Assembly: GCA_963755025.1 (NCBI GenBank)
Contig: CAVWIH010000033.1
Span: 32,001 to 96,000, forward strand
Source of the DNA: an uncultured Actinomycetes bacterium
GTDB lineage: Bacteria > Actinomycetota > Thermoleophilia > UBA2241
Direction of reading: 5' to 3'
DNA length: 64,000 nt
A program made the position numbers and the translations under genes. Under the pieces are notes generated by a model, which searched no databases, was not told where the DNA came from, and saw only the letters and a program-made list of their open reading frames with translations. Shown here in pieces: positions 32,096-34,225 of the stretch (positions within the stretch are counted from its first letter, which is position 1; every line of letters starts with the position of its first letter).

Positions 32096-32644
32096 TCAGG
32101 GCCCAGTGCCGCTCTCGTAGACGAGCCACCTGTCGCCGACGCGGCGCAGGGTCATGAAGACCGTCGTGCGCCCGGCGCTCCAGGGCGACGACGCGCTGGG
32201 CGTGATGTCGACGGTCATGTCGAACTCGATGGTGGCCCCCGCGGGCGGCGCCGGGTCGGCCGTGGCGCCGCCCGACACCACCTTGACTCGCTTGATGCCC
32301 CAGAAGGCGGCGCCGTTGCCCGCACGCAGGGCGGCGGCGGCCGGGGAGTCGGGGGTGACGAGACGGAGAAGGGCGGCGTTGCGCCCGGCGTCGATCAGCC
32401 GCCAGTAGCGCGTGGCGGCCTGGAGGGCCGCCGCCGGCACCGGGCCATCGGTGATGGTGGCGCTGGGCGCGGGCGTCGCGCCGCCGCCGCCGGCCGAGGC
32501 TGCCGGTTTGGGTGAGGCGGCGCCGGGCGCGGACGACTGGCCGCCGGCCGGCGAGGAGACCGACGCGGCGGCGCAGCCGCCGCTCAACGCGGCGACGGCG
32601 ACGCAGCCGAGCAAGGCTGTGGCGAGCTGACTGCGGTGGGTCAC
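32096..32644 (-). CDS. Putative lipoprotein with NTF2-like (DUF4829-like) domain
   Basis: Lipobox-like ALSGGC; C-terminal TTVFMTLRR..WLVYESGTGP; GTG preceded by ggagg. Confidence 0.6.
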   Translation of the reverse strand: MTHRSQLATALLGCVAVAALSGGCAAASVSSPAGGQSSAPGAASPKPAASAGGGGATPAPSATITDGPVPAAALQAATRYWRLIDAGRNAALLRLVTPDSPAAAALRAGNGAAFWGIKRVKVVSGGATADPAPPAGATIEFDMTVDITPSASSPWSAGRTTVFMTLRRVGDRWLVYESGTGP

Positions 32645-32959
32645 GTGCTCCTCCGGACGTGGGCGAGCAAGCGGCCCAAGCTCATCACGGGCGTATCGGC
32701 TTGTAAAGGGTGACGTTCGACCGTCGCCACACGGCGTTCGAGGCCCGTCTGGGCCGGCACGCAGCGTCTCCGTGGAGCCCGCCGCGACGTCGCCGAGAGC
32801 CCGCCGCGGCCGGTCCGCGACGCCGTCGCGGCGGGCCGCGGTCGGTCCGTGACGGCGCCGCGAGCCGGCCGCGGCCCCGCCGTGCTCACCCCGGCGCAGC
32901 TGTGCGATTGTGTAAGGTATAGGACGGGGTATCACGGAAGTGGGAGCGGCTCCGTCTTA

Positions 32960-33007
32960 AACGAAAGAAAACGCACGATTGACCACACAATCGCGCAGGT
33001 CTACAAT
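32960..33007 (+). promoter_or_regulatory. Near-consensus sigma70 promoter with A-rich upstream element
   Basis: TTGACC(32979)-N17-TACAAT(33002), preceded by aaacgaaagaaaa. Confidence 0.8.
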
Positions 33008-33012
33008 GGGTC

Positions 33013-33330
33013 TTGTTCAGCACGCTTGGCGTCGCGCCCGTTGTAGCTCGAGGGGCGCTCGAGTGTGCGGGGAGCGGGCGCGAGTGGGTTGTCCTCGTGC
33101 GATGCGGAAGGTCCGCGGGCTTGAGCGAGCAGGAAGTCGACGCGTCCGCCGCCCCACGAACCTCGGCCCGTAACGGCCGAGAGAACGCGCACAGCAGAAC
33201 GCCGACTTTAAGGAGTCCGCGGCAAGACTCGCCCTCCCCCCGGGCGAGCCGAGCCCCCCTCGGGCCGCGGATGTAAACGAGGGTCGGGGCCGGAGGCAGT
33301 CTCTCTGCCGTCCGCCTCGGCCCTCGTTTG
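33013..33330 (+). ncRNA. Candidate ~315-nt structured RNA containing a 6C-like double C-loop module
   Basis: Several nested helices; two hairpins with C6 runs at 33228-33263; flanked by a promoter and a terminal hairpin; no credible ORF. Confidence 0.7.
33275..33329 (+). terminator. Long terminal hairpin
   Basis: aaacgaggg..ggcag tctct ctgcc..ccctcgttt. Confidence 0.65.
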
Positions 33331-33448
33331 AGTCTCTGGCCCCCTTCGTTTGCCGGCCCGTCCGACCGCGACAACGGGCGTCGCGCCTGCGGTAGAGTTG
33401 CGCCTTGGGCCTGCGCGGCCCACCGACGCCCACAAGGAGGGTCCGCTC

Positions 33449-34225
33449 ATGGCTGTAGAGGTCACACGCGACGGCGCCGTCGCCGTCGTTACGATCAGCC
33501 GTCCCGACGTGCTGAACGCCCTGAACAAGGCGACCGACAAGGAGTTGCTCGCGGTCGCCCACGAGCTCACCCGCGACGACACGGTGCGCGCGGTCGTGCT
33601 CACCGGGGCCGGCGACAAGGCCTTCGTGGCCGGCGCCGACATCGCCGAGTTTCGCGACATGACTCCCGAGGAGGCGCGTCAGCTGTCGTGGCTGGGGCGC
33701 AGGGTCGTGGCCGCCATCGAGGGCGCCCCGCAGCCCTGGATCGCCGCCATCAACGGCTTCGCCCTGGGCGGTGGCTGCGAGCTCGCCCTGGGCTGCGACA
33801 TCCGCCTGGCCGCCGACACGGCGCGCTTTGGCCAGCCCGAGGTCAACCTGGGCATCACCCCGGGCTACGGCGGCACCCAGCGCCTGCCGCGCGAGGTCGG
33901 CAACGGCTGGGCGAGCTACCTCTGCCTGAGCGGCCGCATGATCGATGCGACCCAGGCTGCGGCGATCGGGCTGGTGCAGGCGGTCTTCCCGGCCGCGGAG
34001 CTCATGGCCGAGGCCCTCAAGCTCGCCGGCGAGATCGCCGCCAAGCCGCCGATCGCGGTGCGCTACATCAAGACGCAGATCCACCACGCGTTGAACGTCG
34101 ACATCGAGTCCGGTCACGAGATCGAGCGCGACCTGTTCGCGCTCACCTTCGCCACCGCCGACCGCATCGAGGGCACCGAGGCCTTCCTCGAGAAGCGCAA
34201 GCCGCGGGGCTACGAGGGCAGGTAG
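33449..34225 (+). CDS. Enoyl-CoA hydratase (crotonase)
   Basis: AFVAGADI, NGFALGGGCEL, FGQPEVNLG, GGTQRL. Confidence 0.95.
   Translation: MAVEVTRDGAVAVVTISRPDVLNALNKATDKELLAVAHELTRDDTVRAVVLTGAGDKAFVAGADIAEFRDMTPEEARQLSWLGRRVVAAIEGAPQPWIAAINGFALGGGCELALGCDIRLAADTARFGQPEVNLGITPGYGGTQRLPREVGNGWASYLCLSGRMIDATQAAAIGLVQAVFPAAELMAEALKLAGEIAAKPPIAVRYIKTQIHHALNVDIESGHEIERDLFALTFATADRIEGTEAFLEKRKPRGYEGR

Follow-up and report, generated by a model that had tools for sequence, protein, structure and literature searches.

The locus and its transcription unit

In the window, which is the whole 64,000-nt stretch of DNA that was analysed, a standalone gene for a structured non-coding RNA, equipped with a promoter and a terminator of its own, lies between a UvrD/PcrA helicase gene (assigned by Pfam) upstream and a crotonase (enoyl-CoA hydratase) gene downstream (Table 1). 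The crotonase gene begins at the ATG at 33449, has the same orientation as the RNA and adjoins it in 10/10 genomes of the genus. A lipoprotein-like gene, for which Pfam gave no match in the window copy, also separates uvrD from the RNA in all 10 other genus genomes. The neighbouring genes were compared by tblastn of defined proteins, as tblastx of the loci was swamped by G+C-rich noise.

Table 1. Features of the RNA locus, in window coordinates
Feature	Position	Strand	Remarks
Lipoprotein-like gene	32096-32644	-	GGAGGAG Shine-Dalgarno; signal peptide with Cys
A-rich stretch, UP-element-like	32959..32975	+	upstream of the -35 box
Promoter TTGACC-N17-TACAAT	32979..33007	+	-35 at 32979-32984, -10 at 33002-33007
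Predicted RNA, ~315 nt	33015..33329	+	both ends predicted
5' word GCACGCTTGG	33020..33029	+	nearly invariant in 18 sequences
Hairpin A	33031..33058	+	sequence variable, hairpin conserved
Central domain	33066..33158	+	P-a and P-b close a conserved core
Helix P-a, 5 bp	33066-70 / 33154-58	+	one pair changed on both sides
Helix P-b, 9 bp	33074-82 / 33141-49	+	paired in 18/18; changes only wobble-compatible
Core, 58 nt	33083-33140	+	almost invariant
Hairpin C	33162..33182	+	variable, missing in 2/18 variants; two pairs changed on both sides
Twin C-loop module	33215..33272	+	9-bp enclosing stem and two hairpins
Enclosing stem of the module, GTCCGCGGC / GCCGCGGAT	33215-33223 / 33264-33272	+	invariant
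Hairpin 1	33228-33248	+	loop UCCCCCC at 33235-33241; three stem pairs changed on both sides
Hairpin 2	33249-33263	+	C run at 33254-33259; loop kept
Terminator hairpin, long, G+C-rich, then TTT	33278..33329	+	hairpin 33278-33326
TAGAGT box, -10-like element of the crotonase gene	33393..33398	+	3' of the terminator, outside the RNA

The near-consensus promoter proposed in an earlier note on this DNA is well supported. It is the sole sigma-70-type site between 32000 and 34500 (unique in 2.5 kb; mean of 0.0 in 50 shuffles), and it is intact in 20/20 homologous sequences. The element AAACGAAA..AAA.GCACGA upstream of the -35 box is likewise conserved in 20/20. The predicted 5' end is an invariant G located 8 nt past the -10 box. 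The long hairpin that the same note saw at the end of the tract is present, and the TTT that follows it is taken as the predicted 3' end; in the 18-sequence alignment, a U tract is absent from the terminator in most relatives. The sequence GCGATTGTGT occurs at 32905-32914, about 70 nt 5' of the -35 box. The genus conserves it in part, and in this genome its exact reverse complement occupies 32985-32994, within the promoter spacer. The two could form an operator pair, but a reading of the alignment indicates that the inverted GCGATTGTG copy in the promoter spacer is not retained as a repeat in relatives.

Conservation extends over promoter, body and terminator together and ends sharply on either side. 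Among the 11 genome sequences, pairwise identity is 0.40 in the upstream flank, 0.81 in the promoter, 0.75 in the RNA body, 0.65 in the terminator and 0.28 in the downstream flank, in agreement with the earlier reading of the tract as a discrete structured RNA gene. The 323-nt tract folds at -177.4 kcal/mol, compared with -154.3 +/- 5.5 kcal/mol for 100 shuffles (z -4.17), none of which was equally stable. The tract is non-coding. The description of it as free of open reading frames was too strong, as frames of 87 and 64 aa on the plus strand and 162 aa on the minus strand are present, but none bears a coding signature: the open reading frames of the tract have no Pfam matches, the variable columns of the alignment show no codon periodicity (59/65/60), and indels of 1 and 2 nt are abundant in the alignment.

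One RNA library contains pieces of the predicted RNA. Metatranscriptome run X1 has a 186-nt contig with complete identity to 33046-33231; another contig of the same run, 240 nt long, derives from a congener's copy, matching the window at 33070-33107 and 33211-33274; all its matching pieces and loose ends fall within the predicted RNA. Copies from at least two species are therefore represented in the X1 sample. These contigs demonstrate presence in the library and support transcription without proving it, as they give neither ends nor strand. Contigs of this organism are absent on 32600-34000 in runs X2 and X3, and in X1 outside 33046-33274, an absence of cover that is uninformative. Contig pieces on the crotonase gene were rejected as belonging to this organism; they come from other organisms, because they are short (31-59 nt), only 90-95% identical and have unlike flanks.

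Distribution and comparative structure

The RNA gene appears to be confined to one uncultured actinobacterial genus, where it would be an innovation. The search for homologues that the earlier note proposed was productive: the region was recovered by DNA search from 10 of the 11 other genomes of the genus (74-89% identity), and 16 metagenome contigs were added to these. The sole genus genome without the RNA has a completeness of 56%, and both flanking genes are missing from it as well. The DNA search found the region in 0/29 genomes of other genera. Two models were also applied, R1 for the twin C-loop module and R2 for the 5' domain. Among the 77 non-genus genomes of the family, each of them matched a single genome, weakly (R1, 29.3 bits, E 0.0013; R2, 27.6 bits, E 0.037), and R2 matched 0/150 genomes of the phylum sample. 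The genome searches with R1 and R2 scored only 20-56 candidates per genome, so that weak relatives may be missed. On the syntenic loci of seven other genomes, the highest score of R2 with its filters off was 15.9 bits.

A pattern scan of metagenome contigs returned 56 stretches, of which 16 are true homologues (R2 112-163 bits), and the C-loop module is also found in 15 of these 16. The other 40 stretches were discarded, with R2 scores of no more than 17.2 bits and a resemblance, for the most part, to G+C-rich coding DNA. The corresponding scan of the genome collection gave 13 stretches; four proteobacterial ones among them are chance matches, because they lie inside open reading frames. Removal of duplicates left 20 distinct sequences, 18 of which were aligned with MAFFT, while two truncated ones (L101 and L110) were omitted. 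As the RNA is limited to one genus, all the evidence comes from close relatives. The twin C-loop module is single-copy in the genome.

The comparison yields an architecture of five parts, namely a 5' hairpin domain (P1 and hairpin A), the central domain, hairpin C, the twin C-loop module and the terminator. The CGCTT of GCACGCTTGG forms the 5' strand of helix P1, whose partner is at 33061-33065 and which is 94% paired, and GCGGRCGCG pairs with CGCGUCCGC in 18/18 sequences. The helices listed in the earlier note fared unevenly. The twin hairpins with C runs were confirmed, together with the 9-bp stem that encloses them. The pairings tcgcgcccg/cgggcgcga and aagtcg/cgactt are possible in this genome but, as read from the alignment, are not retained in most relatives, and the comparative data favour the GCGGRCGCG pairing in their place. 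The ctcggcc/ggccgag hairpin is real, although its sequence varies and it is absent in 2/18 variants. Both C-loops are retained in 18/18 sequences, loop 2 with 5-9 C. The predicted unpaired probability is 0.94 and 0.79 in the two loops, against a mean of 0.31 for the whole RNA, and 0.54 and 0.61 in the long invariant stretches of the core.

Covariation supports this architecture. The 80 proposed pairs are 89.7% paired in the 18 sequences, compared with 32-44% when the partners are slid. Thirteen pairs are changed on both sides in these sequences, and 28 cells are changed on both sides versus 12.4 +/- 3.0 after shuffling, a value reached by 0/500 shuffles. The covariation that the earlier note had suggested looking for thus stands above shuffles with 18 sequences, but not with the 11 genome sequences alone, for which 59/500 shuffles reach the observed value. 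The support is carried by hairpin A, in which three pairs are changed on both sides (GUCGC/GCGAU, GUCGG/CCGAU and GUCAC/GUGAU), by the terminator, with four such pairs among the 18 sequences, and by P-a, hairpin C and hairpin 1. Helix P-b, the helices of the core and the stem that encloses the twin hairpins hardly vary and are therefore uninformative. Because the sequences are closely related, covariation here is support and not proof.

For the core, the fit of a three-way junction appears to be equal to or better than that of a large internal loop. Read as a three-way junction, 98.3% of cells are paired, and the changes U77C and G91A keep their pair; read as an 11x11 internal loop, its helices are about 92% paired. 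The 11x11 open-bubble core was accordingly not preferred, and a 7-bp core hairpin, GCGAGUG/UACUCGY, was rejected with one pair broken in 6/18 sequences. An open promoter-like bubble in the core is not established, and the rod-like part of the molecule is the 93-nt central domain only.

Relation to 6C RNA and the proposed role of the C-loops

None of the 4227 families of Rfam 15 gives a gathering-level match in the window. The earlier note had pointed to the 6C, Ms1 and 6S models in particular, and with these, too, the locus stays below every family cut-off. The matches at E<=10 are chance hairpins: HCV_SL588 with 29.2 bits on the terminator, HOTTIP_1 and two microRNA models.

The RNA is not a member of 6C (RF01066), the family known as B11 or ncRv13660c in M. 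tuberculosis and scr3558 in S. coelicolor. In a 91-nt search, the 6C model gives the isolated module 17.6 bits (E 1.4; cut-off 47) with an alignment that covers one hairpin only, and in a 611-nt search it has no match at E<=10; true 6C genes, used as positive controls, score 89-92 bits. Conversely, R1 with its filters off found nothing at E<=1 in the true 6C genes of three genomes. The earlier description of a 6C-like module therefore holds for the adjacent C-loop hairpins but fails on the score, on the single aligned hairpin and on reciprocal detection. Like 6C, the RNA has two adjacent hairpins whose loops contain runs of six or more C, a high-G+C actinobacterial host, and loops that are predicted to be exposed and whose sequence is conserved while the stems vary; by analogy, its action is probably the same, namely pairing of the loops with G-rich mRNA sites. 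Unlike 6C, it has a 9-bp stem enclosing the hairpins and about 200 nt of conserved structure preceding them, and it is much longer (~315 nt, with a module of 58 nt, versus the 75-position family model). It is also limited to a single genus, and its neighbours are UvrD/PcrA, lipoprotein and crotonase genes instead of an Ms1 or CpaE/HAD neighbourhood. 6C is conserved one gene away from Ms1 according to the available part of PMC6582537, and our three control genomes agree with this linkage, with Ms1 and 6C about 1.1 kb apart on opposite strands.

Twin C-loops had been put forward as the hallmark of 6C. C-rich single-stranded stretches occur in 9/25 verified M. tuberculosis sRNAs, as given in the accessible text of PMC6486639, and twin C-loops are therefore a common device and not the hallmark of a single family. 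Elsewhere in the genome (G000:C9:1388-1444, plus strand), a short element resembling an sRNA was observed. It has C-rich motifs and a terminator hairpin with a C-loop, and it scores 39.3 bits with the 6C model (cut-off 47). It is the genome's best 6C-like candidate and is distinct from the RNA studied here. In the class sample, 0/101 genomes have a 6C match above the cut-off, a weak negative, as the same tool found 4/151 in the phylum sample.

With no match to any Rfam family, it is reasonable to regard the RNA as a new family, and the earlier suggestion of a new RNA class is acceptable in this sense. We consider it a candidate new family among the C-rich-loop sRNAs, a kind already known from high-G+C Gram-positives. 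It is well delimited, is represented by 18 distinct sequences and has a testable structure, and it could therefore seed a new RNA family. It also seems to be previously undescribed, judging from Rfam and from a literature search on regulatory RNAs in this deep uncultured Actinomycetota branch that returned nothing relevant, a thin basis for such a claim.

We tentatively favour a trans-acting regulatory RNA that would pair its C-loops with G-rich mRNA sites in the manner of 6C. Experiments in mycobacteria have demonstrated that 6C uses its C-rich loops to bind G-rich ribosome-binding sites, with no need for a chaperone (PMC6486639, available text). The RNA gene has a strong housekeeping-type promoter and is terminated by the long hairpin. 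By analogy with 6C, the covarying stems would hold out the invariant C-rich apical loops UCCCCCC and CCCCCC. These loops include an anti-Shine-Dalgarno-like CCUCC and may pair with G-rich, ribosome-binding-site-like stretches of putative target mRNAs, leading to repression. The conserved 5' two-thirds, comprising the 5' hairpin and the central domain, may serve a further purpose, for instance binding a protein or stabilising the RNA. The invariance of the loop sequence alongside a covarying hairpin 1 stem speaks for the pairing model. Against it, the C-loops would match nearly any strong Shine-Dalgarno sequence in a high-G+C genome, and about 200 nt of conserved 5' structure exceeds the need of a pairing sRNA and is left unaccounted for. 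If the pairing model is correct, a much larger RNA may have independently recruited the C-rich-loop pairing that was demonstrated for mycobacterial 6C. The practical impact would be modest unless the 5' domain binds polymerase or a ligand.

Alternative explanations

The 5' domain may instead carry another function, such as ligand or signal sensing, scaffolding or catalysis, with the C-loops serving for tertiary contacts. This is unlikely, though it accounts well for a core whose long invariant, partly unpaired stretches are typical of tertiary or ligand contacts, for a fold far more stable than its shuffles, and for the lack of a match among known families. Against it, a conserved expression platform is missing, the spacer to the next gene being variable in both length and sequence; restriction to a single genus is unusual for riboswitches or ribozymes; and complementarity between the loops and the core beyond GGG/CCC is not seen in the alignment.

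That the RNA acts by binding a protein, as Ms1 and 6S do, is more doubtful still. In such a role, the central domain would dock and titrate RNA polymerase or another abundant protein, and the C-loops would be secondary. The RNA resembles Ms1 (RF02566; MTS2823) in several respects: its length of about 300 nt, housekeeping-type promoter and hairpin terminator fit the Ms1 description in the available part of PMC4191392, its core is highly conserved, and the conserved word GCACGCUUGG is common to both. The most conserved part is also rod-shaped, with two helices closing a core in which long stretches are unpaired. The word GCACGCTTGG had already been noticed as recalling Ms1. It is indeed conserved in true Ms1, being exact in one of three Ms1 genes (position 231) and having one mismatch in the other two, and the corresponding word GCACGCUuGG is capitalised in the Rfam Ms1 consensus, as the 3' strand of the helix that adjoins the central junction. 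However, the shared word is a match of only 11 nt (blastn E 0.12) with nothing else aligning, and it occupies opposite ends of the two molecules, near the 3' end in Ms1 and in the 5' strand of P1 here. It may thus be treated as a lead and not as homology.

The other comparisons also weigh against polymerase binding. The Ms1 model is silent at the locus at E<=10 (cut-off 162 bits), and its best score in the whole genome, 13.5 bits, falls elsewhere, whereas true Ms1 genes of three genomes score 235-316 bits as positive controls. On Ms1 loci, R2 gives 15.4 bits, which is noise level (15.9 bits on unrelated loci). A whole-molecule rod with a central bubble, as in Ms1, is not established for this RNA, and an open bubble is no better a fit to its core than a three-way junction. 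Runs of 5 or more C are absent from the Ms1 sequences examined. Ms1 is adjoined by HAD hydrolase/SerB-type and CpaE-type genes, as stated in the consulted portion of PMC9130861, and a Pfam scan of nine neighbouring genes found neither type here. That paper lists 824 species with Ms1 candidates in its Supplementary Table 2, and the orders in its main-text Table 4 all belong to the class Actinomycetia. The RNA is not a member of Ms1.

The presence of a canonical 6S gene in this genome is a further argument against such a role. This gene lies on another contig (G000:C32:34344-34494, 75.9 bits), and the 6S model (RF00013, cut-off 46.4 bits) has no match in the window. As in 6S, a strongly expressed structured RNA would be combined here with a conserved, partly unpaired core; in contrast to 6S, the locus holds none of the genome's real 6S gene, which sits elsewhere. 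In the class sample, 23/25 relatives have a 6S match, 22 of them over the cut-off. The class of this host therefore carries canonical 6S, unlike the Actinobacteria that are described as an exception without 6S and for which Ms1 is proposed as the substitute (available text of PMC9130861). RNase P was also found elsewhere in the genome and not at the locus.

A composite of Ms1 and 6C, raised in the earlier note, proved to be unsupported speculation, with no Ms1 match, a differing neighbourhood and a bubble that is not established. We regard it as very unlikely that the 5' domain is a very distant relative of Ms1 or another RNA-polymerase-binding RNA that is joined to a 6C-type module, a reading in which the 5' domain would have the most conserved word of Ms1 in common with that RNA. 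Ms1 and 6C are separate neighbouring genes in mycobacteria and Streptomyces. If the composite did exist, one molecule would couple polymerase binding to mRNA pairing or, alternatively, would retain a linkage of Ms1 and 6C that was ancestral.

That the region holds no functional RNA and is a conserved DNA element or an insertion relic is highly improbable. The region does vary between genera, with both the lipoprotein gene and the RNA tract missing from genera g2, g3 and g5, and the element is known from one genus only; but promoter, body and terminator are conserved as a unit with stem-preserving changes, the element is single-copy, and it is present in an RNA library.

Least probable of all is a cis-acting leader or attenuator of the crotonase gene, a reading to which the shared orientation and the position directly 5' of that gene in 10/10 genus genomes, the possible read-through at terminators that lack a U tract in most relatives, and a single RNAalifold result in which the 5' region pairs with the terminator's 5' arm lend some weight, but which is opposed by the crotonase gene's own TAGAGT box, by an unconserved spacer of variable length between terminator and box, and by orthologous crotonase genes that lack the element. 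The possibility, named in the earlier note, that the tract is just the crotonase 5' UTR fails on the same grounds. TAGAGT is probably the -10 element of the crotonase gene. It is present in 18/18 genus sequences with enough downstream DNA, lying 39-45 nt ahead of the Shine-Dalgarno sequence and ATG and at +346 to +512 from the RNA start. Four sister genera that do not have the RNA carry the box too, about 50-60 nt ahead of the crotonase ATG. As the crotonase gene has its own older TAGAGT element, also in genera without the RNA, the RNA gene was evidently added in the genus. In genera g10, g11 and g6, the uvrD-crotonase gap contains a distant homologue of the lipoprotein and leaves about 200-300 nt before the crotonase gene, in which there is no such RNA. 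In sister genera g2, g3 and g5, the end of uvrD is about 100 nt from the crotonase ATG, with a (GA)TAGAGT box between them. TAGAGT is thus seen ahead of the crotonase gene across at least five genera.
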